The notes under the pieces were generated by a model. The model had not been told where the DNA came from, did no database searches, and worked only from the letters and a program-made list of their open reading frames with translations. 64,000 bases of DNA from an uncultured Candidatus Saccharibacteria bacterium (GTDB taxonomy: Bacteria; Patescibacteriota; CAZHWT01). Position 1 is the stretch's first letter, and each line of letters starts with the position of its first letter. Location: the NCBI GenBank assembly GCA_964554805.1, contig CAZKPX010000003.1:12366-76365 (forward strand). Direction: 5' to 3'. Made by a program: the position numbers and the translations under genes. Shown piece by piece: positions 7,229 to 52,994 of the stretch.

Positions 7229-7392
7229 GGCACACCTCCTTTTGGTGTATGAAAACTGCCAAGCACGGTTGATATATTTAGTATAGTATGGATGTATGGT
7301 TTTTGGCAAGAGGCTTTTGTAGCGACGGGCGACGAGCGACATGGGGTAGCGCAGAGGGCTGAAAACTCAACACTCAAAACTTAAAACAGGTA

Positions 7393-8043: not shown

Positions 8044-8315
8044 GTTTTAGGATATAGGAGTTAGAATATTGAATATGGTGGCGACGGGCGACGAGAACGA
8101 GCGACGGGATTATAATATCAAATCTGACACAGATGCTGCCTTGGTATTGCAATGAGGTAAGCAATCTGGTATAGTTGGTCTCGCTTGGTTAGGAACATGT
8201 TTGACTAGAGATAAGTATAGCATGTCTCGGCTGGGTAGTTCTATTTGAAAGCTGTTCTGAATAGATCCGGAAAATAAGTTGCGGATGACATTTTTTAGAA
8301 CGAATGGTAAACATT

Positions 8316-8948: not shown

Positions 8949-9103
8949 ACGGGGGTGATGGCTGAGGTAGAGGATGATCTTCTTTGTTATATTTTGATAT
9001 ACTCATAATTAAATCTTTAAGCGACGAGAACGAGCGACGAGGAAAGCTTTAAGGTATGCTGGTATTTATGAATTGTCGGTCAATTTTTACAACATTGCCG
9101 CAG

Positions 9104-9871: not shown

Positions 9872-10777
9872 TTACCAGGGTTGTTTGAGGGGGAAATCGG
9901 GGTAGCCGTTGAGGAAGTCGGCTAAGAGGGCTGGCTTTTTGCCTTCCATTTGGACCATGCCGTGAGGGAGGAGTTTGACGCGTTTGTTTCGGAAGAGGGT
10001 CCAGGCGCCTGGCCAGGAGTGGTAGGCATAGATGTGACGCTGCCAATTGTCTGGTAAATGCTGGAGATCTAAGCAGCCGTCTTGTTTGGAAATTTGGCGG
10101 ACATAGGTGGCCTGTGAGTTGTCCTGAGGAGTTAGTCGGGTGGTGCTATTTGAATAGTCTACTAGCACTTGATTGATATATTCTGATGCACTTTGAGACA
10201 TTTTGACATATAAAGAATCAGCTGTTTCTTTATCATCGATCACTACTTTATGTTGGCTGATTATGTGACCTTGATCCATGAGATGGTTCATTTTTATAAA
10301 GGTTATACCGGTATAAGTATCTCCATTCAATAAAGCGGCATTGATGGGCGAAGCGCCGCGATATTTGGGCAAGAGCGAGGTGTGAACATTGATGCAGCCC
10401 AGACTGGGCCAATCAAGCAGCCATTGAGGTAGGATATGACCGTAAGCGGCTACGACTACCAGGTCGACTGGCGGGAGACTGGAGACTGGAGACTGGAGAC
10501 TCTGATTTTGGGTGGTGGAAGCGAGGAGAGATGAGGGTGATTTGAGGGAGGTGGGGGTAAAGAGGGGGAGATGATGGTCTTGGGCGTAGCGGGAGACTGG
10601 TGTGGGTGTGGTCTTGAGGCCATGGCCGACTGGTTTGTCTGGTTGACTGACTACCAATTCTACAGAGAACTGTTGATTAATTGAGTTCAAAATTGGCACT
10701 GAGAACTGTGGAGTGCCGAAGAAAGCTATTTTGAGAGGCGGGGCGAGCGACGAGCGACGAGCGACAAGGTGGGGCAT
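9872..10777 (-). CDS. fmt: methionyl-tRNA formyltransferase
   Basis: HTSLLPKYRGASPINAALLNGD motif; located downstream of def; the N-terminus and an internal loop are encoded by heptamer repeats (GCGACRR at 10743-10766; GGAGACT x3 at 10476-10500). Confidence 0.8.
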   Translation of the reverse strand: MPHLVARRSSLAPPLKIAFFGTPQFSVPILNSINQQFSVELVVSQPDKPVGHGLKTTPTPVSRYAQDHHLPLFTPTSLKSPSSLLASTTQNQSLQSPVSSLPPVDLVVVAAYGHILPQWLLDWPSLGCINVHTSLLPKYRGASPINAALLNGDTYTGITFIKMNHLMDQGHIISQHKVVIDDKETADSLYVKMSQSASEYINQVLVDYSNSTTRLTPQDNSQATYVRQISKQDGCLDLQHLPDNWQRHIYAYHSWPGAWTLFRNKRVKLLPHGMVQMEGKKPALLADFLNGYPDFPLKQPW

Positions 10778-11282: not shown

Positions 11283-11498
11283 AACAATTTTGATAAACCT
11301 AGACTACTTTTGGGCTTCGGTTAGGCTTAATTACTTTTTTCAAATTATACCAACAGCGATACGGGCCGATGACCAGGATGGCTAAGATGACAACGATAAG
11401 GCTATCGACAAGAATAAGAAGGAGCGGCAGGGAGGACATTGGGGTAATTATACCGCAACAGCCATCTGTTGTCAGGTGGCTGTTGGGGAGACGGGGGG

Positions 11499-11590
11499 AC
11501 GAGCGACGGGCGACGGGCACTTATTTAAAATATGGGCATAGAATGTTTAATTGTCTTAAATCTTGTCGCTCGTCGCTCGTCCCCCTTGCT
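11499..11590. repeat. inverted pair of GCGACRR heptamer arrays flanking a 50-nt AT-rich spacer
   Basis: GGGGGGACGAGCGACGGGCGACGGGCAC ... CTTGTCGCTCGTCGCTCGTCCCCC; the arms are reverse complements. Confidence 0.7.
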
Positions 11591-14047: not shown

Positions 14048-14123
14048 GGATTTTTAAAATTGGGCAGGCTTGGTTGTTGGCAGGGGTGGGGTGGGGAGGT
14101 TAAACTGTTTTAAGAAGAAGAGT

Positions 14124-14238
14124 CTCGGGGCGTTCGTGCTCGCGCACTTCCGCTCGCGTTGGGCGGACTGACGCCTTAAAATGCGGGGTGGTCCGCCAGC
14201 TGGCGGAGTGCGCGAACTTCCCTGCGGAAGCGCACGAA
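14124..14238. repeat. about 70-nt dispersed repeat (CTCGGGGCGT..GTGCTCRCGCACTTCCGC...GGGCGGACTGRCGCCTTAAAATGCGGGGTGG) followed by a REP core CCGCCAGCTGGCGG and a hairpin
   Basis: second copy at 41272-41345, also immediately after a gene end. Confidence 0.7.
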
Positions 14239-14274
14239 TTTTTATAATGGTATAGAGGGAGCATTGGTTGTTGG

Positions 14275-16236: not shown

Positions 16237-16240
16237 TAAC

Positions 16241-16476
16241 TTAAGACTTAAGACTTAAGACTTAAGACTTAAAAGGCAAAAGGCAAAAGGCAAAAGGCAA
16301 AGGGCAAAGGGTAAAAGCAAAGGGCAAAAGGCAAAAGTTAAAGTTATAAATCAAAAGTTATAGAGAAATGTATATAGAGAATGAGATTAAACATTTTTCA
16401 CCTTATATTTTCATTTTTGCCCTTTGCCTTTTGCCCTTTGCTTTTGCCTTTGCTTTTGCTTTTCTTTTGCTTTAAC
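16241..16476. repeat. heptamer-array inverted-repeat element: (TTAAGAC)4-(AAAGGCA/AAGGGCA)n ... AT-rich spacer ... (TGCCTTT/TGCCCTT)n
   Basis: tandem 7-nt units at 16241-16335 and their reverse complement at 16417-16476; the spacer contains TAAATCAAAAGTT, shared with the 30380 copy. Confidence 0.75.
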
Positions 16477-16523
16477 CGAGCTTGCTTGTTGTCATATGGG
16501 GGGATTTGGCTATACTGTGGGGC

Positions 16524-17591: not shown

Positions 17592-17604
17592 GGGTTAGAA
17601 GAGA

Positions 17605-17690
17605 GCAGGAGAAGAGAACAGAGAACAGAGAACAGAGAACAGAGAACAGAGAACAGAGAACAGAGAGAAGAGGGAAGAGAGAAGTTGGAA
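17605..17690. repeat. (AGAGAAC)7 heptamer tandem repeat in the dprA-topA spacer
   Basis: GAGAAGAGAACAGAGAACAGAGAAC... seen directly. Confidence 0.8.
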
Positions 17691-17710
17691 ATAACAAGGA
17701 AAGTGAATTT

Positions 17711-20113: not shown

Positions 20114-20171
20114 ATTTGTTGCAAAATTAAGTACATACCATTTGATCAAAAGTGGTTGATTTGATTGTAGC

Positions 20172-20200
20172 TTGACTAAATAATGCTTGAGAGCTATAAA
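20172..20200 (+). promoter_or_regulatory. sigma70-like promoter (TTGACT-17-TATAAA)
   Basis: hexamers at 20172-20177 and 20195-20200, 60 nt upstream of the 20260 ORF. Confidence 0.5.
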
Positions 20201-20259
20201 GGCTGTACTCTCCTGGCGGCTGGCTTGGAGATAGTTAGACATTTGATGGAGTAGCATGG

Positions 20260-20637
20260 ATGGCAAGAGCAGTATCTCGTGGTGTATCTGCTGGTGGACG
20301 CCATATGGGTAAATTCCCTGGAAAACCAGATCTTGGCCCCAAGACTCTACCAGAGGATGATTGCGTCGACAGCAGATCATCGGTGGCTGCGCAGCGGCTG
20401 ATCCACAAAGAATCGATTGCCAGTCATGATGCTGAGCGCAGATTCACAGAAGCGGCTCGAGAGATTGGGCGCTTGATCGGGGTTGGGAAGATTGCAGGAG
20501 ACACCCTTTTGCTTCTACAAGCCGAATGCAAAGGCGGAGATCTGTGTGTTCGAAGCTTGAGCAAGAAATTCAACCTCGGGGATTTGTCTCCGAAGCTTGA
20601 CTTTTCGGACCTTGATGAAGCTATCGATAATCAATGA
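20260..20637 (+). CDS. hypothetical protein (125 aa), GC-elevated cassette
   Basis: ORF with a GGAG ribosome-binding site; no recognisable motif. Confidence 0.45.
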   Translation: MARAVSRGVSAGGRHMGKFPGKPDLGPKTLPEDDCVDSRSSVAAQRLIHKESIASHDAERRFTEAAREIGRLIGVGKIAGDTLLLLQAECKGGDLCVRSLSKKFNLGDLSPKLDFSDLDEAIDNQ

Positions 20638-20655
20638 ACGTGGAGGGAGGCTACT

Positions 20656-20880
20656 ATGCATGCTGGCTCATCCAGACCAGTTCCGAAAGGAAGACCTCAA
20701 AAGCCACGTGATGGCGAGTCTCGCGCACTTGGCGTTGATTTTAGCCGTCTTCGACGCCAACATAGGCAGGATCCTCCAGATTTCGGGGAGAATGACAATG
20801 TGCGAGAATTGTTGCAGGCTGGTGGCTTACGGACATATATACGTGAACTGAGGGACAGAGAGCTCGAACCCTTGGAGTGA
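20656..20880 (+). CDS. hypothetical protein (74 aa), charged
   Basis: ORF immediately downstream of and co-directional with the 20260 ORF. Confidence 0.35.
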   Translation: MHAGSSRPVPKGRPQKPRDGESRALGVDFSRLRRQHRQDPPDFGENDNVRELLQAGGLRTYIRELRDRELEPLE

Positions 20881-20909
20881 CAGCCAGGCTGTCGGACGGA
20901 GGAGACATT

Positions 20910-20950
20910 AAGGCGATTATCAACGAAGATAATCGCCTTTTGTCATTTTT
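20910..20950 (+). terminator. rho-independent terminator (AAGGCGATTAT-loop-ATAATCGCCTT-TTGTCATTTTTA)
   Basis: 11-bp perfect stem followed by a T-run. Confidence 0.7.
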
Positions 20951-21055
20951 ATTAATACTTTGCCAAGGATTGGCTAATGTAAAGAAGAAGCCTGATAAGA
21001 AAAAGCGATCTTCTAACCAGCGGATTGACAAGAGTCAGATTTCGCTCAAATATAA

Positions 21056-21085
21056 TTGACATTAACCTATAGTTTGCGATATACT
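21056..21085 (+). promoter_or_regulatory. sigma70-like promoter (TTGACA-18-TATACT)
   Basis: consensus -35, and a -10 variant that recurs across this window. Confidence 0.55.
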
Positions 21086-21139
21086 CAAGATTGATCACAG
21101 CGAATCCTTTTCGAAGTAGATTGTCACCAGTGAGGAGCA

Positions 21140-21523
21140 GTGAGAATGGCGAGGCGAACGAATTTGGTTGGCGGCGGGCGGGCAGAGCAGTTGTCCGGTA
21201 TGCGCAATAACGTTCAGCGCACCTCTGTCGGCGCCGACGGAAGAGTTTTTATCGAGACTGATCAAATGACGGGTTGGGTTAACCCAATTGAGTCGGCAAT
21301 TGGTGAGGATGATCCTCCTGCAGAGCGACAGCGGCTCTCTGTGCGCCAGCTGACTTTGCTTGGCGAGATTAAAGATCTTAAAAAGGAGATTCGTAAGAAG
21401 GCTGCCTATCCATCAGTCACGGTTAGTCTAGGGCAACTCCTGAGTAACCGCGAGGCTGAGTTGCTTCGGGTCAAGAGCCAGATCGATGAGATTGATCAGC
21501 AAGAGGCTGAAGCGCGTCTTTAG
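21140..21523 (+). CDS. hypothetical protein (127 aa) with a C-terminal coiled-coil-like region
   Basis: ORF downstream of the promoter at 21056. Confidence 0.45.
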   Translation: MRMARRTNLVGGGRAEQLSGMRNNVQRTSVGADGRVFIETDQMTGWVNPIESAIGEDDPPAERQRLSVRQLTLLGEIKDLKKEIRKKAAYPSVTVSLGQLLSNREAELLRVKSQIDEIDQQEAEARL

Positions 21524-21676
21524 CAGGAGCTAGAGGCGCTTTTTAGCACTATCTGGCCAGGTTTGTGAAAAGGAGAGTTGTGGGGCGGTTGTTTTTGGAC
21601 GACCGCCCTTTTCCATTTTTTAAAATATAAAAACTCAATCAGAATACAGCCATACTTGCTTGATGGGTGTACAATA

Positions 21677-22153
21677 ATGTCTGAGAAAAGGAAGGCTGCC
21701 CGATTGGTGGTGGTCTTGGAGGCAAGTCGAAGGAGACTTGAGATGCGTGACGCGCAGTTAGTTGTTCTGGATGTGTCTGAAAAGACGGGTATGATACGGG
21801 CAACCTTTGATCCGTGGGTTTTTGCTGAAGTACCACTGACCACCGGTTGTTGGTCGGTGCGCCAATTCACTCCATCAGTGGAGGACGAGGCGTACCGTAC
21901 AGTGGGCTGGTCGAAAATCCTTGAGTCTTTGGATCGGGCTCAGCTGCTATTGGGCCTGAAGTACTATGTTCCCGAGATCGGCGGGATTTGTTTTCAGGGC
22001 TTGAGCTTCGATGAGATCGACGGGGCTCGGGAGACTGTTGAAATTTCCCTTGACCCGGAGCTAATCAATGATGAAGTTGTCTTGTGCCAGTTGCGGGATG
22101 GATTTCGGCAGGGTTTGCAAGCTGTCGATGTGGAATTCAATTTTGTCGTCTAG
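21677..22153 (+). CDS. hypothetical protein (158 aa)
   Basis: in-frame ATG at 21677 preceded by TACAAT; the longer track ORF begins inside the upstream terminator region. Confidence 0.4.
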   Translation: MSEKRKAARLVVVLEASRRRLEMRDAQLVVLDVSEKTGMIRATFDPWVFAEVPLTTGCWSVRQFTPSVEDEAYRTVGWSKILESLDRAQLLLGLKYYVPEIGGICFQGLSFDEIDGARETVEISLDPELINDEVVLCQLRDGFRQGLQAVDVEFNFVV

Positions 22154-22188
22154 CCTTGAGAGATTGGGCGACTAGGATGAGGACGAAC

Positions 22189-22227
22189 GGGCCCGGCGGT
22201 GAATTCTGCCGGGTCCTTTGACGTTTT
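22189..22227 (+). terminator. rho-independent terminator (GGGCCCGGCGG-loop-GCCGGGTCC-TTTGACGTTTT)
   Basis: GC-rich stem followed by a T-run. Confidence 0.65.
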
Positions 22228-22427
22228 GAGGTTGAATATAAGTTGAATAAGGTTGAATGTTGTGGTATATTCCGTCTGGTCATTTGCTTCCGTCGGCTGG
22301 CGGAAGTGAAAGGCCAATACTCACATCTCATACAGGATCTTCTGCGTTGATTGAGATTATCTTCAATGGCGTTTACCTGAGATGGCGGTTCCCGAATGGG
22401 AAGTTATTACAAGAAGGGGGCATATTA

Positions 22428-23228
22428 ATGTCTAAAATTTCTATGAAAGACCTGCTTGAAGCAGGCGTTCACTTTGGTCACCAGTCTAAACGCTGGAACC
22501 CTAAAATGAAGCAGTATATCTTCACTGCTCGCAATGGTGTGCATGTAATCGACTTGGCCAAAACTGTGCCAGCTATGGATGAAGCATATACTTTTGTTCG
22601 TGATTTGACAGCTAATGGCGGCCAGATTATCTTTGTTGGCTCCAAGAAGCAGGCCCGTCACATTGTGACTGAAGAAGCTAAGCGGGTTGGAGCAATGTAT
22701 GTGACTGAGCGTTGGTTGGGTGGTTTGTTGACTAACTTTGATTCTATTAAGAAGTCTCTGAAGAAGTTGGAAACACTAAAGGCTCAAAAAGAAAATGGCT
22801 CTTTGAAGAGTTACACTAAGAAAGAACAAGCAATTGTTGACCACGAAATCGCTCGTCTGGAGCGTTTGTTGGGTGGTATCTCTGAATTGCGTCAGTTGCC
22901 ACAAGCATTGTTTATTATCGATCCTCATAAGGAAGATATTGCTGTCGCAGAAGCTAAATTGGTTGGTATTCCTGTAGTAGCTGTTGTTGATACAAACTGT
23001 GATCCGTCAGTTATCAACTTTCCAATCCCAGGCAACGACGATGCTTTGAAGTCAATTCGTTTGTTTGTTAAGAATATTGCCGATGCGGTTGAAGAGGGTA
23101 AGAAGCAGCGTCAAGTAGCTAGTGATAAGGCTGCGGCTGAAGCTGGTGAAAAGCGCGAAGAGAAGGCTAAGGAAGAAAAAGTAGAAGTAAAAGTAGAAGT
23201 AGAAGTAAAAGAAGAAGCAGCTGCTTAG
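22428..23228 (+). CDS. rpsB: 30S ribosomal protein S2 with a low-complexity [13 protein letters not shown] tail
   Basis: [27 protein letters not shown]; AAGGGGG ribosome-binding site; the tail is encoded by GTAGAAG/GTAAAAG heptamers at 23180-23215. Confidence 0.9.
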
Positions 23229-23378
23229 CTCTAGTTCTCATTGTTGTCATTGCGAGGAGTGTGATGACGCGGCAATCTAGCCTTAATATAAACTGGATTG
23301 CCGCTCCGCCAGTTGGCGGATCGCAATGACAAAAAGATGATAACCAAGACATATCTAATACCTGAAAGGACTTAAGAA

Positions 23379-23834
23379 ATGGCATTGAACACTGAATTAA
23401 TTAAAGAACTTCGCGAGAAGACTGGGGCTGGTATCATGGATGCTAAGCAAGCTCTGGAAGAGTCTGGTCAGGATATGGCTCAGGCTGAAGAGTGGTTGAA
23501 GCAAAAGGGTTTGGCTTCGGCTGCTAAAAAGGGTGACCGCGAAACCAAGCAGGGTCTGGTGGAAACCTATATTCATAATGGTCGCATTGGGGCTATGGTT
23601 GAAGTGAACTGCGAAACTGATTTTGTGGCTAAGACTGAAGATTTTCAGACTTTGGCTAAGAATATTGCTTTTCAGGTAGTATCGATGGATCCTGAAACTG
23701 TTGAAGAACTGCTGAAGCAGGACTTCATCAAGGATCCTAGTACTTCAATTGAAGACTTGATCAAGGCTGCTATTGCTAAATTGGGTGAAAATATTGTGGT
23801 GGGGCGTTTTGTTCGGTATGAATTAGGCGCTTAA
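23379..23834 (+). CDS. tsf: elongation factor Ts, short 151-aa form
   Basis: MALNTELIKELREKTGAGIMDAKQAL N-terminal UBA-like domain, then ...EVNCETDFVAKTEDF. Confidence 0.85.
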   Translation: MALNTELIKELREKTGAGIMDAKQALEESGQDMAQAEEWLKQKGLASAAKKGDRETKQGLVETYIHNGRIGAMVEVNCETDFVAKTEDFQTLAKNIAFQVVSMDPETVEELLKQDFIKDPSTSIEDLIKAAIAKLGENIVVGRFVRYELGA

Positions 23835-23920
23835 GAATCGCAGGAGCTAGGTCTTAGGATTTAGGTATTAAAAGCGCCTCTCGAAAGGAGGTGCTTTTGG
23901 TTTACTTTTGCCTGATGTCA

Positions 23921-23962
23921 TTGCGAGGATCCGCCAGCTGGCGGATCCTCGCAATGACGTAG
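23921..23962. repeat. perfect 42-bp palindrome GTCATTGCGAGGATCCGCCAGCTGGCGGATCCTCGCAATGAC (REP-like family)
   Basis: the sequence equals its reverse complement; it contains the CCGCCAGCTGGCGG core. Confidence 0.85.
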
Positions 23963-24031
23963 TGTGTGGCCATTTGCCTTCTTCTTGCATGTCTCTTCTA
24001 TCTTCGGATTGGATATGCGATAATAGGGATT

Positions 24032-24589
24032 ATGAGCGAACAGATTATTCAGCAAGCAAAACAAAAAATGCAACAGAGCTTTGAAGCTTTTGAGCGAGAT
24101 ATGTCAACTGTCCGTACCGGCAGAGCCGCGCCAAGCCTGATCGAAAACTTATCGGTGGAAGCGTATGGTAGCATGATGAAGTTGCAAGAAGTGGCTTCGA
24201 TTACTGCTCCAGAACCGGCTCTTTTGGTGGTGCAGCCTTGGGACGCTTCTTTGGTTGATGTGGTGGCTAAGATGCTACGTACTTCAGATTTTCACTTTAA
24301 TCCAGCCGTCGAGGGGACCGTTATTCGGATACCTCTGCCTCCACTTACTCAAGATCGCCGCCAAGAGATGGTTAAGATGGTTGGCAAAAAGACTGAAGAG
24401 GCCAAGATTAGCGTGCGAAATGTCCGTCAAGATACTTTGACTGCCTTGAAGCGCGCTAAAGAGGGTAGTGAAATTAGCGAGGATGAATTGGCTGGATTTG
24501 AGAAGCGTGTCCAGGATTTGGTTGAGGCTACTAATAAGCAGATTGAGGCGGCAGCTAAGGTTAAAGAACAAGATTTGATGAGTCTTTAG
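24032..24589 (+). CDS. frr: ribosome recycling factor
   Basis: MSEQIIQQAKQKMQQSFEAFERDMSTVRTGRAAPSLIENLSVEAYG is a typical RRF N-terminus. Confidence 0.9.
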   Translation: MSEQIIQQAKQKMQQSFEAFERDMSTVRTGRAAPSLIENLSVEAYGSMMKLQEVASITAPEPALLVVQPWDASLVDVVAKMLRTSDFHFNPAVEGTVIRIPLPPLTQDRRQEMVKMVGKKTEEAKISVRNVRQDTLTALKRAKEGSEISEDELAGFEKRVQDLVEATNKQIEAAAKVKEQDLMSL

Positions 24590-24759
24590 TCCTAACCCTA
24601 GCGACAGGCGACGCGCGACGGGTACGAGTTATTGATTCATGTAGTTAAGGCTAAATTTACTCGTGCTGGTACTTGAATGAATGGGCTTAGGATAGATTTA
24701 GGCTGGGTGAGGTAGAGTAGACACTGATAAGAAATCTTTATTGGGAAATCTGAGGATTT

Positions 24760-25887
24760 ATGGAAAATATTATTAACACGTTTATTACAGCTAGCATATT
24801 TATTTTTATTTTATTGGTGCTGGTTGTCGTTCATGAGCTAGGTCACTTTTGGGCTGCCAAAAAGGCCGGCATTAAAGTGGAAGAATTTGGGGTTGGTCTG
24901 CCACCTAAGTTGTGGGGTAAGCAGGTCGGTGAGACAGAATATACGGTTAATTTGCTGCCAATTGGCGGTTTTGTGCGGATGTATGGGGAGATGCCTGATG
25001 GGGTGTCGATTAAGGAGGCGACGAGCGACGAGCGACAGGCGACTGGGGATGCTGCGGATGAGAGTCGGGCGTTTACGAGTAAGTCGCCGGCTTGGAGATC
25101 GGTGGTGTTGTTGGCTGGAGTGGCGGCTAACTTGGTGCTGGGAATTGTTATTTTTGGGATCGTTTATACGGTTGGTTTGCCTCAGTATAGTGCGACGCCA
25201 GTTATTAGTGAGGTGAATGAAAATTCTCCGGCAGCCGCGGCTGGTTTGGAGAAAGGGCAGACTATTTTGGCTTTGAATGGGGTGAAATATGATGATATTG
25301 AACCTAGTTTCTCGGCTCAGATCACTGAGTTGAAGGGCCAGGAAGTAGTAATGCGAGTGGCTAATGAAGATGGGACCGAAGAGGATGTAGTTATTACTCC
25401 TCGAACTGAAATTCCAGCTGGGCAAGGGGCTTTGGGTGTGGTAATTGGGGCGGGTGATGTGTATCAGTCTGATGTTGTTCGCTATCCGTTTTGGCAGGCC
25501 GGTTGGGAAGGTACTAAGCAGGCTATTGGCTTTGCGGGCATGATTTTGGGCTCTCTGGGGTCGATGATTGGGGGTTTGAGTCAGGGTAATGTGCCGCAGG
25601 ATTTGGCTGGGCCGGTGGGAATAGCCTCTGTTATCGGTGAGGCTCGGTCGTTTGGTTGGGTGCCGGTTTTGTTCTTTGCTGGAATCATTAGTATCAACCT
25701 GGCTGTGATCAATATATTGCCATTCCCAGCTTTGGACGGTGGTCGGCTAGTATTTGTAGCTATTGAAGCTATTACTCGTCGCAAAGTTAGCCCGAAGGTG
25801 GAAGCGATTGTAAATACAGCTGGCATGGCAGCGCTATTGCTGCTGATTGCGGCAATTACGGTGTCTGATATTAGTAAGTTTTTCTAG
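24760..25887 (+). CDS. rseP: RIP metalloprotease RseP (peptidase M50A with a PDZ domain), short form
   Basis: HELGHFWAAK, GGFVRMYGE and LNILPFPALDGGRL motifs; a GCGACRR array at 25019-25045 encodes KEATSDERQATGD. Confidence 0.8.
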   Translation: MENIINTFITASIFIFILLVLVVVHELGHFWAAKKAGIKVEEFGVGLPPKLWGKQVGETEYTVNLLPIGGFVRMYGEMPDGVSIKEATSDERQATGDAADESRAFTSKSPAWRSVVLLAGVAANLVLGIVIFGIVYTVGLPQYSATPVISEVNENSPAAAAGLEKGQTILALNGVKYDDIEPSFSAQITELKGQEVVMRVANEDGTEEDVVITPRTEIPAGQGALGVVIGAGDVYQSDVVRYPFWQAGWEGTKQAIGFAGMILGSLGSMIGGLSQGNVPQDLAGPVGIASVIGEARSFGWVPVLFFAGIISINLAVINILPFPALDGGRLVFVAIEAITRRKVSPKVEAIVNTAGMAALLLLIAAITVSDISKFF

Positions 25888-30379: not shown

Positions 30380-30496
30380 AAAAGGCAAAGGGCAAAGGGC
30401 AAAAATTAAAATCGTAAATCAAAAGTTGTTATACTAACATTGCAATCATTGGGCACTTTTAATAGTAACTTTTGATTTTTGCCCTTTGCCTTTTGA
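30380..30496. repeat. heptamer-array inverted-repeat element (AAAGGCA)n ... spacer with TAAATCAAAAGTT ... (TGCCCTT)n
   Basis: same family as 16241-16476 and 49060-49152. Confidence 0.7.
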
Positions 30497-30500
30497 TTTT

Positions 30501-33605: not shown

Positions 33606-33748
33606 GAAGATTTAATCCCGGCTAGGCGGCTGGGATTAAATCTTCACTGCTGGCTGAGCGATAAGAGAGTGATAGCTATCGTGTATTAGATTGGATTATT
33701 AATGACAAGATTTAATCCGGCACGGCGTGTTGGGATTAAATCTTGTTT
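33606..33748. repeat. two similar hairpins (AAGATTTAATCCC-loop-GGGATTAAATCTT) about 100 nt apart
   Basis: copies at 33606-33645 and 33708-33748; stems identical, loops different. Confidence 0.6.
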
Positions 33749-34301: not shown

Positions 34302-34919
34302 ATGAAATTGATTGTTGGATTGGGAAATGTTGGAACGCAATATGAGATGACGCCGCACAATGTGGGGTTTGCTGTAATTGATCAGCTGGCTGGTCAGTTA
34401 AGCGACGAGCGACAAGCGACGAGCGACGGATGGGAAACGGTGGGGAGAATTAAGGCTGACGTGCTAAAGACTAAACTTGGAGATGAAGAGGTGGTGTTGG
34501 CTAAGCCGACGACTATGATGAATTTGTCAGGTGGGGCGGTTAGTAAGTTGGCCCAGTTTTATCGGATTAAGGCTGAGGATATTTGGATAATTCACGATGA
34601 GTTGGACTTGGTGTTGGGTAGATTGAAAATTTCTTCTGGTGGCGGGATGAATGGGCATAATGGGCTACTTTCTATTACAGAACAGTTGGGGCATAATCGG
34701 TTTTGGCAGTTCAAAGTTGGGGTGGACGGGCGAGTTGGTCGAGAGATACCAGGCTTAGCTTACGTGTTAAAGCCATATGATGGCAGCGAGTTACAACTTG
34801 TGCACAAAAGTGTGGATATGACTGTTGAAGCAGTAAAATTGGCCTTGTCTAGCGGTCTGGAGCGAGCTCGGAAAGAGTATAATAAGAAAGTGGTTGAACC
34901 ACTTTCTGAGGAGAAGTAA
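34302..34919 (+). CDS. pth: peptidyl-tRNA hydrolase
   Basis: MKLIVGLGNVGTQYEMTPHNVGF...MNLSGGAV...HDELDL; a GCGACRR array at 34401-34428 encodes SDERQATSDG. Confidence 0.85.
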   Translation: MKLIVGLGNVGTQYEMTPHNVGFAVIDQLAGQLSDERQATSDGWETVGRIKADVLKTKLGDEEVVLAKPTTMMNLSGGAVSKLAQFYRIKAEDIWIIHDELDLVLGRLKISSGGGMNGHNGLLSITEQLGHNRFWQFKVGVDGRVGREIPGLAYVLKPYDGSELQLVHKSVDMTVEAVKLALSSGLERARKEYNKKVVEPLSEEK

Positions 34920-34996: not shown

Positions 34997-36772
34997 ATGA
35001 CATTATATCGGAAATATAGACCTCAAACACTGGCTGAGGTGACTGGCCAGGATCATATTGTTAATGTGCTGCAGGCGGCGGTCGCTCAGGATCGAGTTGC
35101 GCATGCCTATTTATTTGCTGGACCAAGGGGTACCGGTAAGACTTCGGTGGCGAGAATCCTGGCTAAGGCAGTGAACTGCCTTAGCCAGGAGCGACAAGCG
35201 ACAAGCGACGAGCGACAAGTGGGTGCAGAAGATGCTTTGGGCTCGTCGCCTAAGCTTCAAATTCCCTGTAATGTTTGTGATAATTGTGTGGCGATTGATA
35301 AGGGGTCGTTTTTGGATGTCTTGGAAGTTGATGCAGCTTCGAATGGTCGAGTAGAGGAAGCTCGGCAGTTGATAGAGCAAGTGGCTACAGCTCCGGCCAT
35401 GGGTGGGTATAAGGTGTATATTTTGGATGAAGTGCATATGCTGAGCAATGCGGCTTTTAATGCATTGTTGAAAACTCTGGAAGAGCCGCCAGCTAAGGTG
35501 GTGTTTGTGTTGTGCACGACTGAATCTCATAAGGTGCCGGTGACGATAGTGTCTCGATGTCAGAGATTGGTTTTTAATCGGGCTAGTGTGGAGCAGGTGC
35601 GGCATCAGTTGCAGAAGGTGGCTGAAGCTGAGGAGATACAGATTGATGAGGGCGCTATATCGTTGGTGGCTGAATTGGCTGATGGGGGCTATCGAGATGC
35701 CTTGATGCTGTTAGAGCAATTAGCCACTTCAGAGATTGGTGCCAAAAAGGGTGGCTTGAATCGTCAAATGGTCATTGATCAGCTTGGTTTGGCTCGCGAG
35801 GATGTGGTGGAGGCTATTTGTCAGGCTATGGTTGCTCATAAAGTTGATGAAGTGATTGAGTTAACCGAGTCGCTTTTAAGTCAAGGGGGATCGGCCCAGG
35901 CTTTGAATCAAGCCTTGATTGAGTGGTGGCGACGACGGTTAATGGTGGCTACTAATAGTGGATTGGCTGTGAAGCTGTTTGGTGAGGTTGCAGTGGAGGC
36001 GATGAAGTCGTCGGCAATGGCTGTGAGTGCTAGACAGGCGACTGAAGTTTTGCAGCATCTGTTGGCTTTGCAACAGGTGGTGGCTGGGAAGGATGGCTTG
36101 GCGTTGCAGGTGGCGCTGGTCGACTTAGCGGCTACGTCGGGCGACGGGCGACGGGCGACGAGCGACGAGGAGGGGGAGGCTGTGAAGTCGGAGCCAGTCT
36201 CTGTGGTGGTTGCGCCTCCTACCACCTCCAGTCCACAGCCTTCTGTTGCTAGTGAGCCGTTGTCGCAGCCGCCGGCGGATGTGGTCGGGGAAGCTTTTAG
36301 TGACGAGCGACGAGCGACCAGCGACAAGAGGGATGAAGGCTTGTCGCCGGTCGCCAGTCGCTCGTCGCTCGACAGCCAGGCTGTGGCAGTTCCGGTTAAT
36401 GCGCCGGCTGAGTTGCTGGAGGCTTGGGGTAAGATTTTGGTGGAGTTGAATCAGCAAAGTCGGTCTTTGGCGGCTATCCTGCGTGACTGTACGCCGTTGT
36501 CCTATGATGGTACAATACTGCTGTTGCAATTCTGGTACGAATTCCACAAAAAGCAGATTGAATTGGATAAGAATCGCAAGTTGTTGGAAAAGGTATCGAG
36601 CCAGGTTTTAGGGCAGTCGGTCAAAGTTCGTGGACAGTTGGGTGATCTGACTAAACGACCTCGACGGCGAGCCATGTCTGAAGAAGATATTCATAATGTG
36701 GAACCGGTTGAAGCGGATGCTTCGGAATTGCTGGATGCAGCGAGTAAGATATTTGGTGGGGAGATTTCGTAA
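34997..36772 (+). CDS. dnaX: DNA polymerase III subunit tau/gamma
   Basis: MTLYRKYRPQT...YLFAGPRGTGKTS; three GCGACRR arrays inside the reading frame (35190-35218, 36140-36168, 36301-36328). Confidence 0.85.
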   Translation: MTLYRKYRPQTLAEVTGQDHIVNVLQAAVAQDRVAHAYLFAGPRGTGKTSVARILAKAVNCLSQERQATSDERQVGAEDALGSSPKLQIPCNVCDNCVAIDKGSFLDVLEVDAASNGRVEEARQLIEQVATAPAMGGYKVYILDEVHMLSNAAFNALLKTLEEPPAKVVFVLCTTESHKVPVTIVSRCQRLVFNRASVEQVRHQLQKVAEAEEIQIDEGAISLVAELADGGYRDALMLLEQLATSEIGAKKGGLNRQMVIDQLGLAREDVVEAICQAMVAHKVDEVIELTESLLSQGGSAQALNQALIEWWRRRLMVATNSGLAVKLFGEVAVEAMKSSAMAVSARQATEVLQHLLALQQVVAGKDGLALQVALVDLAATSGDGRRATSDEEGEAVKSEPVSVVVAPPTTSSPQPSVASEPLSQPPADVVGEAFSDERRATSDKRDEGLSPVASRSSLDSQAVAVPVNAPAELLEAWGKILVELNQQSRSLAAILRDCTPLSYDGTILLLQFWYEFHKKQIELDKNRKLLEKVSSQVLGQSVKVRGQLGDLTKRPRRRAMSEEDIHNVEPVEADASELLDAASKIFGGEIS

Positions 36773-42133: not shown

Positions 42134-42670
42134 GTGCGACTCTCTTGCTGGCAAAGACGCTTAAGTCCTGGAGTCACTAAGACTACCACTAACCTAAGCT
42201 ACACCGCCACTGCTCGGCGGTACACTCGCTTTAGAGAACGCCTCCCCCCAGAGAGTGTAGACAGACTGGATGGCATTGTGGAAGTAGATGATTCATGGTT
42301 TGGCAGACAAAGACATGGCTCGCAGAGAATTGTGGTAGGAGCTATTGAGCGAGGTACAAAGAGACTCAGACTGCAAATTATTCCAGACACCGCTCAAGAT
42401 TCACGAGAGGAGTTTATCTGTGCGGTGGTTACTCCTCAAAGCCTGCTGGTCACTGACACTCGCATGGGCTACTCAGGTATTGAGTACTGGGGTTATGGTC
42501 GGCCATGAGGCGACACTTGAGAGGGCTCTCCAATCATGTCGGTATTAGACACCTGCAAACTTTCTTAAATGAATGGATGGCCAGACATAACCAGCCGCAG
42601 GTATTTAAAAGCCCACAGGACTATTTTGCAGGTATCTTGTTCCGCTTTAGTTGACAGTGCTGCGGAGTGG
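42134..42670 (+). pseudogene. IS1595-family (ISXO2-like) transposase remnant, frameshifted and N-terminally truncated
   Basis: IVEVDDSWFGRQRHGSQRIVVGAIERGTKRLRLQIIPD...LLVTDTRMGYSGIEYWGYG (DDE core), then in other frames HLQTFLNEWMARHNQ; no intact ORF. Confidence 0.5.
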
Positions 42671-45315: not shown

Positions 45316-46038
45316 TTAAAGGTTAAAATCTGACCAACCTCGGAGGTTATCGCCCCAGAGAACCTCCGAGGTTGGTTTGTTTGTGGCTAGGAGTCTTTGG
45401 TAATCTGCGTTGTCCGTTATAAAGCGAAGATAGCTTTGTTTAGAAGGGAATTCGCATAATATAGAAGTGTTATCACAAGAAGATGCCAGCTTTGATGAAG
45501 CTTGCTCTGAGATATAGGCTGATATAGATGACCATGGGTATGCTAGGCAGCCTTCCACTGTTTTGCTAATCGAACTTGCGTACGGATTTAGATGAATATA
45601 TCTTGATGTATGGAGGAGTTGTTCTTTGCTGCTGATATGTACGGCCTTGAATTGTGTGGAGAAAAGAGGGCCTTGGCGTTTATTCAGCTGATTAAAGTAC
45701 TTGGTGTAGCTGTTTTGAAATAGACTGAGATAGTGAGAAATTCCATTTTGGCTATTTTGTCTTAACAGTAAGTGGAAATGATTTGGCATAAGACAGTAGG
45801 CGATAATATCAACTTTTTGATCTGCGTTATTGTTATTGCTGAGCAGCCCACTCCTTGCGATTAGGGTCTGTCGAATATAGCTACTGAAGCTGATGGGCTG
45901 CGACTTAAGGTAGAACTCAAGTGTGCTCATTGCTCGCTGATAGTGAAGATTGCTGGCAAAGGTTAGTTGGTGATTCTGGCCTCTATTATAGACATGGTAT
46001 ATCTGGCCGTTTTGTAGGGGGAGTTGTCGACGAGGCAT
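45316..46038 (-). CDS. REP-associated tyrosine transposase (RAYT; IS200-like Y1 transposase)
   Basis: YHVYNRG, LMPNHFHLL (HuH) and RYIHLNP (catalytic Tyr region) motifs. Confidence 0.75.
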   Translation of the reverse strand: MPRRQLPLQNGQIYHVYNRGQNHQLTFASNLHYQRAMSTLEFYLKSQPISFSSYIRQTLIARSGLLSNNNNADQKVDIIAYCLMPNHFHLLLRQNSQNGISHYLSLFQNSYTKYFNQLNKRQGPLFSTQFKAVHISSKEQLLHTSRYIHLNPYASSISKTVEGCLAYPWSSISAYISEQASSKLASSCDNTSILCEFPSKQSYLRFITDNADYQRLLATNKPTSEVLWGDNLRGWSDFNL

Positions 46039-46150
46039 AAAATGGGTGCTTTATATGATGTGTTCTAGCTCATATAACTAAGATAGTCAACAACTAAGCA
46101 TGTGAACCTCGGAGGTTGTCTGGGTTGTGAACCTCCGAGGTTGGTTAATT
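45338..46150. mobile_element. RAYT gene bracketed on both sides by paired AACCTCGGAGGTT/AACCTCCGAGGTT hairpin-forming repeats (BIME-like)
   Basis: CCAACCTCGGAGGTT...AACCTCCGAGGTTGG at 45340-45385 and GAACCTCGGAGGTT...GAACCTCCGAGGTTGG at 46098-46150. Confidence 0.65.
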
Positions 46151-46345
46151 TTTCATAAAACAAAAGACCCGCTTGGTGGAGTCGGGCCTTTTGAGGGTAT
46201 AGTATAGCAGGTTTTAGCAAATATTGCTTGGTTACTGATAAGACTTAGGATTTAGTCCGCCGGTTGGCGGATTAGGATTTGGGATTTAGGAATAAGATAT
46301 TAAACCTCTACATCCTCAACCTCTACATCCCGCCGAGCTATCTGT

Positions 46346-48010: not shown

Positions 48011-48036
48011 GGGAGAGTCCTTTTAGGATTTAGGGT

Positions 48037-49038
48037 TTAGGGTTTAGGGGCTTTTCTTTTGATGACTGTTTGGGCGGCTTTTTGAATAGCTGGGACATCC
48101 ATGCGGTATTTGGTAAGTAATTGTTCAGGAGTGCCTGATTCGGCAAAGGTATCCTGAAGGCCGATACGCTCGAGTGGTAGTGGATGATGCTGGGCTAGAA
48201 TTTCGGCAATCATACTGCCGAGACCGCCGGTGGTCTGATGATCTTCGACGGTGACGACTGCGCCGGATTGGGCGGCTAGCTCTACAACTTGTTTGGCGTC
48301 GACTGGCTTAATCGAGGCGACGTTTATGACTAGAGAATCGACGCCGAGTGTTTCGAGGCCTTTGGCTGCCAGTAGAGCATAGTAGGTCATGTAGCCGCAG
48401 GAAAAAATGGTGACTTGAGGATTGTCTGAAATCCAGAATGCACCTAGTTCGCCAATAGTAAAAGGAGTTTTGTCGGTGGTGATAACCGGGGTTTTGTCTC
48501 GGCTGTATCGGAGGTAAAATGGGCCATCAGTTTGGCCGGCCGCGATGGTGGCTTTGGTTGATTCGATGCTGTCGCAGGGGGCAAGCACGGTCATTCCAGG
48601 CCAGCAGCGAGTAATAGCGATATCTTCAGTGGCTTGGTGAGTGGCGCCGTCAGGGCCGGTCATGATGCCGGCATGGTGACCAGCTACTTTGACATTGGCA
48701 TTGTTGTAGACGGCGGTAGTGCGGATAGTCTCCCAATTTTTGCCAGGAGAAAAGGCGGCATAGGAGGCGATAAAGGGGATTTTGCCAGTGACAGCCATGC
48801 CGGCAGCCACGGAGGCCATGTTTTGCTCAGCCACACCGACCTGCACAAAACGTTCCGGATATTGTTTGGCAAAGGCATCTGAACGGGTGGATTCGGTCAA
48901 ATCAGCAGTAATAGCGACAACATTAGGATTTGTTTCACCCAGAGACATAAGACCTAAGCCATAGCCGTCACGAACAGGTTTTTTGTCGACGGTTGGTTCA
49001 AATATATCTGGATTTAAGTGGAGTTTAGGGTTAAGCAT
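48037..49038 (-). CDS. transketolase, C-terminal (pyrimidine-binding) subunit
   Basis: ...FIASYAAFSPG...; follows the N-terminal subunit gene; ATG at 49038. Confidence 0.85.
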   Translation of the reverse strand: MLNPKLHLNPDIFEPTVDKKPVRDGYGLGLMSLGETNPNVVAITADLTESTRSDAFAKQYPERFVQVGVAEQNMASVAAGMAVTGKIPFIASYAAFSPGKNWETIRTTAVYNNANVKVAGHHAGIMTGPDGATHQATEDIAITRCWPGMTVLAPCDSIESTKATIAAGQTDGPFYLRYSRDKTPVITTDKTPFTIGELGAFWISDNPQVTIFSCGYMTYYALLAAKGLETLGVDSLVINVASIKPVDAKQVVELAAQSGAVVTVEDHQTTGGLGSMIAEILAQHHPLPLERIGLQDTFAESGTPEQLLTKYRMDVPAIQKAAQTVIKRKAPKP

Positions 49039-49059
49039 GGTGGTAATTAAAATTTCAAA

Positions 49060-49152
49060 GTCAAAAGGCAAAGGGCAAAGGGTAAAAGTGTATCATTAAT
49101 TTTTTGATTTTTTGAATTTAATTTTTGACATTTAATTTTTACCTTTTGACTT
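49060..49152. repeat. heptamer-array inverted-repeat element (AAAGGCA/AAGGGCA ... AT-rich ... TACCTTTTGAC)
   Basis: same family as the 16241 and 30380 elements. Confidence 0.6.
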
Positions 49153-52718: not shown

Positions 52719-52994
52719 TGTGCTCTGCCTTTCCTTTTTTGGTAACAAAAAACTCTCCGGTGAGGGAGAGTTAGAATGGTTACCAGATAGAAACGGAAAA
52801 AACGGGTATATCAGGCCATAGAACTTCCCTCAACATGACTGTTGGTAAACCAATAGATATAGTTGTGGGAACGTTGAGCTGACATAGGGGAAGTATACAC
52901 CTTGGAGCGACGAGCGACAAGCGACGGGTGACGAGGGGTGTTTTTGCTAGAAAAGGGATGGGGTATACTGGAGATACTAGGTGAAGGAGGTTTA

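Follow-up and report, generated by a model that had tools for sequence, protein, structure and literature searches.

GCGACRR heptanucleotide arrays lie in-frame in housekeeping genes of a Saccharibacteria genome with a general excess of period-7 repeats

Among the long SSRs of many bacteria, heptameric repeats are the over-represented class, an excess for which slippage of the polymerase has been put forward as the cause (PMC4679880 and PMC4692102, each with reference to Mrazek et al. 2007). Dispersed heptamers have been described as the STRR sequences of cyanobacteria (Calothrix, Nostoc), as GGGGAYT in Anabaena and as GGGAATC in Xanthomonas (PMC4692102), and TAACTGA heptamer repeats occur in Beggiatoaceae, cyanobacteria, and Bacteroidetes (PMC4679880). 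Rickettsia palindromic elements (RPE; Ogata et al. 2000, 2002) are, in the summary given by PMC10969869, about 100-150 bp long, palindromic, and characterised by a conserved encoded peptide. A full-text literature search returned no report of heptamer repeats in Saccharibacteria, no paper containing the GCGACRR repeat string, and no paper on in-frame occurrence of GCGACRR in coding regions.

Here, we analysed the heptanucleotide repeat GCGACRR in a 64-kb stretch of Saccharibacteria DNA, the whole of which is referred to as the window. Tandem GCGACRR heptamers were found at 12 loci together with three inverted partner copies, compared to a chance expectation of 0, and overlapping dimer matches numbered 19 as against 0.00 in 100 dinucleotide-preserving shuffles. 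The 12 primary arrays (starting at 7322, 8081, 9021, 10747, 11503, 24601, 25018, 34402, 35191, 36141, 36307, and 52907) consist of two to four exact-phase units arranged head-to-tail, as in STRR-type long SSRs, with which the repeat also shares recurrence at many dispersed loci; another heptamer, AAAGGGC, likewise recurs at three loci. All 12 lie on the + strand (two-sided p ~0.0005), including two in minus-strand genes, and this strand is the strongly G-rich one, while inverted copies are located at 11563, at 36341 and, as a short one, at 35241-35250. About half of the tracts in the window are inside genes, and GCGACRR is not confined to intergenic DNA as STRR, GGGAATC, and TAACTGA are. An earlier note on this DNA had proposed a dispersed repeat that also sits in-frame in dnaX, pth, rseP, and fmt, and the census and translations bear this out: an array is present at every position it listed, and the peptides it quoted (rseP KEATSDERQATGD, pth SDERQATSDG, dnaX ERQATSDERQ, SGDGRRATSDE, and DERRATSDK) are correct. 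The loci, with one tract of a separate heptamer, are:

7322..7342, + strand: three units (GCGACGG GCGACGA GCGACAT), overlapping the first 7 codons (MSLVARR) of an unannotated ORF, 6920-7342(-)
8081..8108, + strand: GCGACGG GCGACGA GAACGA GCGACGG G, in the divergent spacer between an M50 peptidase gene (-) and rpmB (+)
9021..9041, + strand: GCGACGA GAACGA GCGACGA GG, 15 nt upstream of a HIT-family gene
10474..10501, + strand: (GGAGACT)x4, the separate heptamer, in-frame inside fmt, aa 93-102, SLQSPVSSLP
10740..10769, + strand: three units and one degenerate unit inside fmt (gene on - strand), codons 4-12
11494-11518 (+ arm) and 11563-11585 (inverted arm): hairpin pair with a 50-nt loop, in the divergent def-mreB spacer
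24601..24621, + strand: GCGACAG GCGACGC GCGACGG, in the frr-rseP spacer
25016..25045, + strand: four units in-frame in rseP, aa 87-96, ATSDERQATG
34400..34429, + strand: four units in-frame in pth, aa 34-43, SDERQATSDG
35157..35250, + strand: dnaX zinc-module loop, inverted repeat, four-unit array, spacer, and inverted copy
36134..36170, + strand: dnaX inter-domain linker, array of four to five units, aa 383-393, SGDGRRATSDE
36298..36371: dnaX linker coding hairpin, + arm 36298-36328 (DERRATSDK) and inverted arm 36340-36371 (GLSPVASRSSLD)
52904..52935, + strand: three units and GTGACGA, intergenic, just upstream of the DHH-like gene 52938-53912

All six frames of GCGACRR are free of stop codons. 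Its own strand yields the cyclic peptide A-T-S-D-E-R-R from every frame, which is hydrophilic and charge-balanced, and the reverse strand encodes S-S-L-V-A-R-R. Opposite-strand ORFs reading SLVARR, which the earlier note had regarded as spurious, exist at 24838-25425, 35111-35605, 35908-36327, and 36125-36547, all on the - strand. The ATG of ORF 6920-7342(-) is supplied by the last unit of the 7322..7342 array, and this ORF had no match in Pfam or NCBIfam. In the arrays at 8081 and 9021 the middle unit is 6 nt long, and an identical odd 19-nt variant, GCGACGAGAACGAGCGACG, is common to 8088-8106 and the 9021 array. The note's array in fmt does lie in the coding region, but antisense to the gene, reading LVARRSSLA at codons 4-12.

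At the dnaX zinc-module locus, the one singled out in the earlier note, a perfect 16-bp inverted repeat (35157-35172 / 35175-35190) is followed by the four-unit array (35191-35218, ERQATSDERQ), a 22-nt spacer, and a short inverted copy, GCTCGTCGCC, at 35241-35250; the perfect 16-bp palindrome directly 5' of the array is window-specific and made by synonymous codon changes. This loop comprises 26 residues compared to 5 in E. coli gamma, a gain of ~21, and corresponds to ~19-21 alignment-gap columns relative to the closest relatives. The earlier note had put this in-frame gain at ~14 residues instead of the ~21 obtained by alignment, and the array itself contributes only ~10 of the 21 extra residues, the remainder being spacer and partial inverted copy. 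In the linker, the arms of the 36298-36371 hairpin are 87% complementary (MFE -54.2, z = -6.8). In the DnaX model, the insertions occupy loop and linker segments of low confidence, with predicted pLDDT values of 46-69 for residues 61-90 and of ~30 for the linker. A role of the linker hairpin as a -1 frameshift stimulator, giving a gamma-like product, was considered and judged unlikely: a TTTT run at 36295-36300 is followed by TAG in the -1 frame, a canonical slippery heptamer is absent, and the stem begins at zero spacing. Two further candidates were set aside. The "ERRQ" in the same loop of the closest DnaX (L208) is encoded by DNA (GAGCGGCGGCAG) too diverged to be called a seed or remnant, and the loop insertion in Moranbacteria DnaX is a 51-nt tandem duplication, not a heptameric one.

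Relatives were located by protein searches and contig look-ups; a DnaX scan of genome contigs returned generic motifs, with no close relative among the matches listed. Four syntenic Saccharimonadales relatives (L213, L212, L087, L084) contain 0-1 period-7 tracts, and their spacers are much shorter (41 vs 245, 24 vs 119, and 8 vs 170 nt here, the last being the frr-rseP spacer, with 8 nt in L213). Compared to orthologues, the rseP loop with the array is 5-8 residues longer and the pth array represents a 9-11 residue insertion. In fmt, the GCGACRR array lies in a 12-residue N-terminal extension that the L213 orthologue does not have, and the (GGAGACT)x4 tract accounts for ~11 extra residues relative to L213. 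Overall, rseP, pth, dnaX, and fmt contain eight in-frame tracts, seven of GCGACRR and one of GGAGACT; all of them keep the frame, with conserved domains on either side, and coincide with orthologue alignment gaps and low-pLDDT segments. Since the relatives are without the inserted residues and nearly without period-7 tracts, the insertions are lineage-specific, and an ancestral low-complexity loop, the outcome that would have spoken against a repeat in DnaX, Pth, RseP, and Fmt, is not borne out.

GCGACRR is one family within a general excess of period-7 repeats in this genome, which the earlier note had overlooked. The window contains 23 period-7 tracts compared to 0-2 for periods 5, 6, and 8-11, as in STRR-rich genomes, and 17 exact heptamer arrays per 64 kb, where 80 unrelated bacterial loci gave 1.8 over the same length. 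Further units include AAAGGGC, AGAGAAC, GGAGACT, ACTTAAG, and TTTAGGG among others, and arrays abut other heptamers in phase. An AAAGGGC hairpin element is present in two copies with a common non-repeat core. A palindrome, CCGCCGGTTGGCGG, was also observed inside a TTAGGAT array at 46240-46291.

Beyond the window, GCGACRR occurs in-frame in MurE, MurD, LpxK, DXS, TsaD, and other enzymes on metagenome contigs, which differ widely in GC content and one of which was traced to Planctomycetota. Many of these matches sit at contig ends. The GCGACRR-bearing contigs (654 kb) carry ~150 other heptamer arrays, 95 unit classes in all, compared to 34 heptamer arrays in 1.24 Mb of control loci; the propensity is thus a property of the genome and not bound to a single sequence. 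Four units were the commonest length across unrelated taxa (70/120 arrays; 13, 9, and 8 arrays had five, six, and seven units), in a search that required ~3.7 units and was biased towards 4. The 4-unit blocks have sharp CRR(GCGACRR)4 boundaries and are phase-consistent in many unrelated contigs. Base profiles of the 120 arrays revealed a conserved GCGAC core with variable RR positions and no conserved or duplicated flank, the upstream sequence being just a continuation of the unit (CRR), and neither MITE terminal inverted repeats nor target-site duplications were found at these arrays. Array orientation showed no correlation with GC skew in 78 metagenome contigs (42/78, p = 0.57), and 6 of 91 arrays had an inverted partner.

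The repeat had also been called REP-like, a label we do not retain: the unit is no palindrome, roughly half of the tracts lie within genes, in conflict with the extragenic location of REP/REPIN, most arrays are singlets, and the RAYT-like gene in the window has a different hairpin. Tandem GCGACRR arrays showed no internal dyad, and single arrays did not fold (z -1.2 to +2.5, 8 loci). Among the 12 loci, two strong inverted pairs and one partial pair were found, short of the predominance of doublets seen with REPINs; the arms of the def-mreB hairpin (11494..11585) are 95% complementary (MFE -65.9, z = -8.1). The terminator scan was blind to such long-loop heptamer hairpins. The RAYT-like gene (45316-46038) scored 49.7 bits against NF047646, below the 80-bit cut-off, and is flanked solely by AACCTCSGAGGTT hairpins, which were seen nowhere else in the window. 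A link between this Y1 transposase and GCGACRR was rejected on the basis of these hairpins of its own and of the relative L084, in which RAYT is present and heptamers are absent. Within the window, the better candidate for a REP sequence is a separate palindrome family, CCGCCAGCTGGCGG.

On balance, we favour the reading that the loci are heptanucleotide microsatellite-type arrays, GCGACRR being one of several families in a genome with a general, lineage-specific tendency to make and spread 7-nt tandem repeats. Replication slippage and template switching would generate short blocks of 3-4 units, and existing blocks would be copied to new sites, at times inverted. Signs of copying or template switching are the variant common to 8088 and 9021, the inverted copies, and the 16-bp palindrome 5' of the dnaX array. 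Arrays once placed would change through gain or loss of units and through unit mutation followed by homogenisation; at one Sedimentisphaerales MurE site with the GCGACRR repeat, orthologues 66-87% identical have RATSDERRATK, RDTRYEIRDTK, RTTHHARRTTK, longer forms, or nothing, a strong variation in length that would fit change in situ. For the Saccharibacteria genome itself, where the earlier note had suggested rapid length variation, the only other copies are 100% identical. Selection would then act as a filter, and the intragenic survivors are net insertions of a multiple of 3 nt, stop-free, in presumably flexible loops, linkers, or termini. GCGACRR, stop-free in six frames and with its hydrophilic peptide, would pass this filter unusually well. 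Selection most likely keeps only in-frame, stop-free, hydrophilic insertions after slippage or template switching, and these are most likely near-neutral passengers, not functional modules.

Random birth by slippage fails to account for one unit at 12 loci in 64 kb and for the dominance of sharply bounded 4-unit blocks across unrelated taxa, and the common strand of the 12 primary arrays counts against slippage as well, as does the absence of a correlation between array orientation and GC skew. Stepwise 7-nt slippage would take dnaX, pth, and fmt through lethal intermediates with a shifted frame, and we therefore infer that pre-formed blocks were inserted. The inability of single 7-nt steps to give in-frame blocks in essential genes also favours a very small non-autonomous mobile element, a ~30-nt (GCGACRR)4 block or, sometimes, an inverted doublet, cut or copied by a trans-acting enzyme such as an HUH/Y1 ssDNA transposase or a reverse-transcriptase-like activity, with slippage merely secondary. 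Phase-consistent 4-unit blocks as the commonest form in many unrelated contigs, the idiosyncratic variant repeated identically at two loci, the RAYT-like gene, and the common core of the AAAGGGC hairpin copies point the same way, as does the placement of all primary arrays on one strand, an outcome of IS200/IS605-type ssDNA transposition. We nonetheless regard such an element as unlikely, though by no means negligible: terminal inverted repeats, target-site duplication, and conserved flanks are all absent, the RAYT gene is flanked by a different, non-dispersed hairpin and occurs in L084 with no heptamers, the inverted pairs differ in their loops, which are unrelated, an inverted partner exists for so few arrays, and the 95 unit classes alongside GCGACRR argue for a sequence-independent process. 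A bolder variant, which we consider quite unlikely, is a trans-acting, horizontally transferable, sequence-specific system that inserts ready-made (GCGACRR)n blocks, also into essential genes, in distant phyla (Saccharibacteria, Planctomycetota, and high-GC soil bacteria); it could be a templated repeat-adding polymerase, a reverse transcriptase, or an unrecognised ssDNA transposition pathway. If it existed, a heptamer-rich genome would be a marker of the system, and the bacterial 7-nt excess would be enzymatic, not passive slippage.

The conserved GCGAC core with variable RR positions and the co-orientation of the arrays on the G-rich strand are also what a cis-element would present, in which a sequence-specific DNA- or RNA-binding factor contacts the core every 7 nt, with one protein bound to each heptamer, and influences transcription, the stability or translation of mRNA, or the organisation of the chromosome; a sequence-specific factor had already been raised in the earlier note. 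Start codons follow at least four of the intergenic arrays at a distance of 15-200 nt (those of rpmB, the HIT gene, rseP, and mreB), and a fifth array, at 52907, lies shortly before the DHH-like ORF. A role of this kind is suggested for TAACTGA repeats in PMC4679880, where CspB is also noted to bind heptamer repeats. Sister genomes in which the same genes stand in the same order have no arrays, so the arrays are not needed for regulation; moreover, half of the tracts lie within unrelated coding sequences, the flanking genes have no common feature, and an Rfam search of the window matched four tRNAs and none of the arrays, making this account improbable. Several arrays at promoter or 5'-UTR positions might instead act as contingency loci, since with a unit that is not a multiple of 3 a change in copy number would switch genes on or off or tune promoters, as heptanucleotide repeats drive HMW1A phase variation in Haemophilus (PMC8262952). 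This account is highly improbable: dnaX, pth, fmt, and rseP are essential single-copy housekeeping genes, not dispensable surface or virulence genes, and an off state in them would be lethal; the arrays have just 2-4 units, and Logan contigs from two independent assemblies of separate runs were 100% identical to the window over 9-16 kb, five arrays included. That identity, the frame kept by every intragenic array, orthologues without the inserted residues, and strictly 7-periodic DNA leave it hardly credible that we are looking at an artefact of assembly or binning, or at an ancestral loop of low complexity merely resembling a repeat, even though repeats break assemblies, the Logan contigs begin exactly at the 30381 array, and many metagenome matches lie at contig ends.

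A 7-nt repeat, despite the expected frameshift hazard, repeatedly lengthens loops and linkers in the clamp-loader zinc module, Pth, RseP, and Fmt, and elsewhere in MurE, MurD, LpxK, DXS, and TsaD, which gives very small genomes a simple way of gaining new protein segments. The bacterial heptamer excess ("why seven?") has been known since 2007, and the heptamer-free, fully syntenic sister genomes of this lineage provide a clean comparison for finding the responsible factor. For annotation, the arrays yield spurious antisense ORFs and false N-terminal extensions, the deposited 845-aa TopA running through one, besides breaking assemblies.

The small dispersed repeats (SDR) of Nostoc punctiforme, the subject of work by Elhai and colleagues in Genome Res in 2008, are reportedly 21-27 nt long, found in a heptamer-rich genome and often inside heptamer arrays, and are said to be unique hairpin sequences, not the arrays themselves; the CCGCCGGTTGGCGG palindrome within the TTAGGAT array resembles them. 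To our knowledge, in-frame colonisation of essential genes is not a feature of that work. Like REP/REPIN sequences (PMC3116915), GCGACRR is short, abundant, and dispersed, forms some hairpin-forming inverted doublets, and has a RAYT-like gene in the same window, but unlike them it is non-palindromic, not confined to extragenic DNA, and dominated by singlets, and the RAYT hairpins are different. Both arms of the dnaX linker hairpin are translated, as in the coding palindromes of Nematomorpha mitochondria, which are up to 284 bp long, perfect, and not made of tandem heptamers (PMC6649704). With RPE, as far as the summary in PMC10969869 describes them, GCGACRR shares a selfish-looking, lineage-specific presence in-frame in unrelated housekeeping genes and also between genes, adding a hydrophilic peptide at fold-compatible positions. 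It differs from that description in that the inserts are 21-63 nt tandem heptamers, mostly non-palindromic (palindromic only at the dnaX sites 35157-35250 and 36298-36371), in another phylum and accompanied by many heptamer families; judged from phylum and tandem-heptamer make-up, homology to RPE families is very unlikely. The closest likeness is to STRR, GGGAATC, and TAACTGA: short tandem arrays (2-10 copies) of a 7-nt unit, an overall richness in heptamers with one favoured unit at many loci of the genome, occasional hairpin-capable inverted pairs, one unit recurring in distant phyla, and slippage as the proposed mechanism. Those repeats are essentially intergenic, and TAACTGA has stop codons and no forward read-through, whereas GCGACRR is stop-free in six frames, has about half of its tracts in-frame in essential genes, and resides in a reduced-genome Saccharibacteria (CPR) lineage. 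Its occurrence in coding regions is the unusual aspect compared to known heptamer repeats, and GCGACRR in the loops of essential proteins is a variation, so far little described, on a known type of bacterial repeat.

The flagged site at 35190–35218 reads directly as GCGACAA GCGACAA GCGACGA GCGACAA, and GCGACRR dimers gave 19 overlapping matches in the window, compared with a chance expectation of 0.00 from 100 dinucleotide-preserving shuffles of it. The arrays are:

7322, 8081, 10747, 11503, 24601, 25018, 34402, 35191, 36141, 36307 and 52907, + strand: exact-phase arrays of 2–4 units
9021: degenerate array, GCGACGA-GAACGA-GCGACGA
11563 and 36341, − strand: arrays on the opposite strand

All 12 primary arrays (12/12) are carried by the + strand, and the − strand copies are only inverted partners of a nearby + array. 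Every array coordinate listed in an earlier note on this DNA, and all the array-encoded peptides it quoted, proved correct on checking, and the antisense ORFs reading SLVARR are present as it described.

Pfam searches of the array-bearing ORFs identified RseP (M50 and PDZ), Pth, DnaX and Fmt; GCGACRR arrays outside these four genes are intergenic. Within the genes, the heptamers lie as follows:

rseP, aa 87–96: GCGACRR array, in-frame, sense
pth, aa 34–43: GCGACRR array, in-frame, sense
dnaX, aa 67–77, 383–393 and 438–446: GCGACRR arrays, in-frame, sense; the last has an inverted partner at aa 450–461, likewise translated
fmt (minus-strand gene), codons 4–12: GCGACRR array antisense to the gene, LVARRSSLA
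fmt, aa 93–102: another heptamer, (GGAGACT)x4, in-frame

Orthologue alignments placed the DnaX insert between zinc-ligand cysteines one and two, with about 19–21 gap columns in the closest relatives, and alignment to the solved E. coli gamma/tau structure broke exactly at the insert (26 residues in the window, 5 in E. coli). In addition, Pth had gained 9–11 residues, RseP 5–8 in an already variable loop, and Fmt 12 residues as an N-terminal extension plus about 11 internally. DnaX was modelled with AlphaFold2 (mean pLDDT 74.5); the model, built on a shallow alignment and used as supporting evidence only, was confident in the domains and of low confidence at residues 73–85 and 382–467, the segments holding all three array sites. 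Judged by these alignments, the insertions are lineage-specific; relatives with the same residues and no repeat structure, as expected of an ancestral loop, were not seen. In a Moranbacteria DnaX (P0022; locus L209, 10190–10270) this zinc-module loop has independently acquired a 51-nt tandem duplication (LSRQS...LSRQS), which shows that other CPR lineages also accommodate insertions there.

The earlier note's reading of lineage-specific, in-frame loop insertions was upheld by the alignments, but its "REP-like" label is wrong: the GCGACRR unit has no dyad symmetry, inverted pairs are few, and the RAYT-like gene in the window is flanked by different hairpins. Strong folding was found at only two GCGACRR loci (11480–11600, z = -8.1; 36290–36380, z = -6.8) and partial folding at 35191, and among the metagenome matches listed, 6 of 91 arrays had an inverted partner within 200 nt. 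The gene in question is:

45316–46038, − strand: RAYT-like Y1 (IS200-type) transposase (Pfam PF01797; NCBIfam REP_Tyr_transpos, below cut-off)

Hairpins of its own, AACCTCGGAGGTT..AACCTCCGAGGTT (45333–45376 and 46104–46146), flank this gene, and no further copies of them were found within the window. A link between this gene and GCGACRR was rejected, as the syntenic relative L084 has a similar gene next to recR, yet no heptamers.

A separate dispersed palindrome, CCGCCAG(C/T)TGGCGG, is the better candidate for a REP-like element here. It occurs at 8767, 8926, 14193, 23306, 23931 (within 23917–23958), 27190 and 46257, with longer complementary arms GTCATTGCGAGGATCCGCCAGCTGGCGGATCCTCGCAATGAC and none expected by chance. 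Its copies lie mostly in gene spacers, two within the doubtful ORF 8703–9008, and the one at 46257 inside a TTAGGAT heptamer array. A near-identical hairpin pair AAGATTTAATCCC...GGGATTAAATCTT (33607–33644 and 33707–33744, 62 nt apart) lies upstream of a diacylglycerol kinase gene, and the short ORF at 42134–42508, which has a Pfam DDE transposase domain of the IS1595 family, is probably a transposase remnant. The dnaX linker hairpin (36290–36380) directly follows a TTTT run, with a TAG in the −1 frame at 36298–36300, which gives it a superficial resemblance to the frameshift arrangement for gamma in E. coli dnaX; it has neither a canonical slippery heptamer nor a spacer, and the likeness is probably coincidence.

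GCGACRR is the largest family within a window-wide excess of period-7 repeats. With a minimum of three units and 85% lag identity, there were 23 tracts of period 7, compared with 0–2 for each of periods 5, 6 and 8–11, and TRF together with an exact-period scan revealed arrays of AAAGGGC/AAAAGGC, AGAGAAC, GGAGACT, ACTTAAG, TTTAGGG, AGTGAGA, GAGTCAG and GAGAAGC. The AGAGAAC array (about 8–12 units, 17597–17684) fills the dprA–topA spacer. The topA ORF reads through it, and the deposited 845-aa protein (P0243) has a spurious N-terminal extension, the true start being MKNLVIVESPAKAK (17711), matching eight orthologues. The (AAAGGGC/AAAAGGC)n arrays with inverted (GCCCTTT)n partners (16271–16451, 30380–30500, 49057–49152) directly follow gene ends and may be terminators that heptamer slippage has lengthened; a non-heptamer core AAAAGTTAAAGTTATAAATCAAAAGTT is common to the first two, which are therefore copies of one composite hairpin element. 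Two minus-strand genes 26 nt apart have (TTTAGGG)x4 between them (48022–48049); this unit, the plant-type telomere repeat, is probably just one more heptamer family.

Window TopA was 72–74% identical to proteins labelled Candidatus Saccharimonadales or Saccharibacteria, which assigns the window to a TM7 (CPR) bacterium. The syntenic relatives compare with the window as follows:

L212/L208 (sample DRR438448): TopA 81%, DnaX 51%
L213: TopA 75%; collinear with window 7393–25887
L087: DnaX 46%
L084: DnaX 41%

These relatives have 0–1 period-7 tracts versus 23 in the window, and spacers are much shorter in L213 than in the window: PBP2–dprA 41 versus 245 nt, dprA–topA 24 versus 119 nt, frr–rseP 8 versus 170 nt, and rpsB–tsf 25 versus 150 nt. 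The comparisons show heptamer richness to be a genome-level property, independent of unit sequence and recent in the window's lineage. GC skew is very strong and uniform across the window (1–64000; +0.20 to +0.33 in each 4-kb block), reaches +0.36 to +0.38 in the nearest relative's contigs (L208, L212), and is -0.04 to +0.09 in L213, L084 and L087.

Scanning JGI metagenome contigs with GCGACRR x3 + GCGAC recovered at least 120 loci, on contigs of 33–75% GC among the matches listed. On lower-GC contigs the array is in-frame and spanned by Pfam domain alignments, in LpxK, DXP synthase, TsaD, MurD, Ham1/RdgB, endonuclease V, a Na/Ca exchanger, a sulfatase and a glycosyltransferase, with ATSDERR-type peptides at the array; the array in an ABC ATPase is antisense, giving SSLVARR. 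Among the matches listed, contigs found via GCGACRR held about 150 other heptamer arrays in 654 kb (95 unit classes in all), a density roughly eight times that of control loci. A Sedimentisphaerales (Planctomycetota) contig, L096, carries (ACGATGG)5(ACGAGCG)7 in phase in murE (2982–3108). One site among 27 MurE orthologues (66–87% identity) reads RATSDERRATK, ELRDTSDERRATK, RDTRYEIRDTK, RTTHHARRTTK or longer forms, or is absent; a second reads SDERRATSH, and SIVNRQS, SSIEHRA, TMDDGRW and RDTRYEI recur with seven-residue periodicity at several insertion sites. MurE length in this order ranges from 477 to 593 aa; with the periodic insertions, this implies that heptamers have widely colonised coding sequence in Sedimentisphaerales. 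Coding heptamer arrays can thus be old and vertically inherited, vary in length and turn over in place.

GCGACGA contains no stop codon in any of six frames. Since 7 and 3 share no common factor, all three frames of a strand encode one cyclic heptapeptide: ATSDERR (hydrophilic, net charge zero) in sense and SSLVARR in antisense. Against simple slippage, one unit at 12 loci cannot have come from independent births, and steps of a single 7-nt unit would put essential genes out of frame. The dominance across taxa of four-unit tracts with sharp CRR(GCGACRR)4 boundaries (70 of 120 matches listed, followed by 13, 9 and 8) also speaks against it, albeit with a search threshold that favours four units. 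We consider it slightly more likely than not that replication template switching inserted or copied pre-formed short heptamer blocks, on which slippage and a coding filter then acted. An identical odd 19-nt variant at both 8088 and 9021, together with the inverted copies, is evidence for copying and template switching; the MurE variants, and GCGACRR arrays abutting other heptamers in phase, were taken as evidence of in-place turnover. Immediately 5' of the dnaX array, a perfect 16-bp inverted repeat TCCTGGCTAAGGCAGT / ACTGCCTTAGCCAGGA (35157–35190) lies in conserved coding sequence (ILAKAV / NCLSQE). It arose through synonymous substitutions in the N-C-L-S codons, and L084, L087 and L208 lack it. 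Template-switch mutagenesis produces "palindrome perfection", which suggests that this repeat may be its product. A dedicated mobile mechanism, the main rival to template switching, we regard as unlikely. On 78 metagenome contigs among the matches listed, array orientation showed no relation to GC skew.

GCGACRR is a dispersed heptanucleotide repeat, with coding arrays on contigs of very different GC and in at least two phyla traced (Saccharibacteria, Planctomycetota). In full-text literature searches the repeat string did not turn up in any paper, nor did any paper connect Saccharibacteria to heptamer repeats. With sister genomes free of heptamers, the question "why seven?" becomes testable. 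Precedents include cyanobacterial STRR, Anabaena GGGGAYT and Xanthomonas GGGAATC (PMC4692102) and Beggiatoaceae TAACTGA (PMC4679880), which have in common with GCGACRR the pattern of a largest family within a period-7 excess. Both papers cite a 2007 finding that heptamers are the over-represented class of long SSRs, along with the idea of polymerase slippage. Routine in-frame colonisation of essential genes is unusual and apparently undescribed, and would surprise a specialist; a functional parallel, without relatedness, is provided by the Rickettsia palindromic elements as portrayed in PMC10969869.
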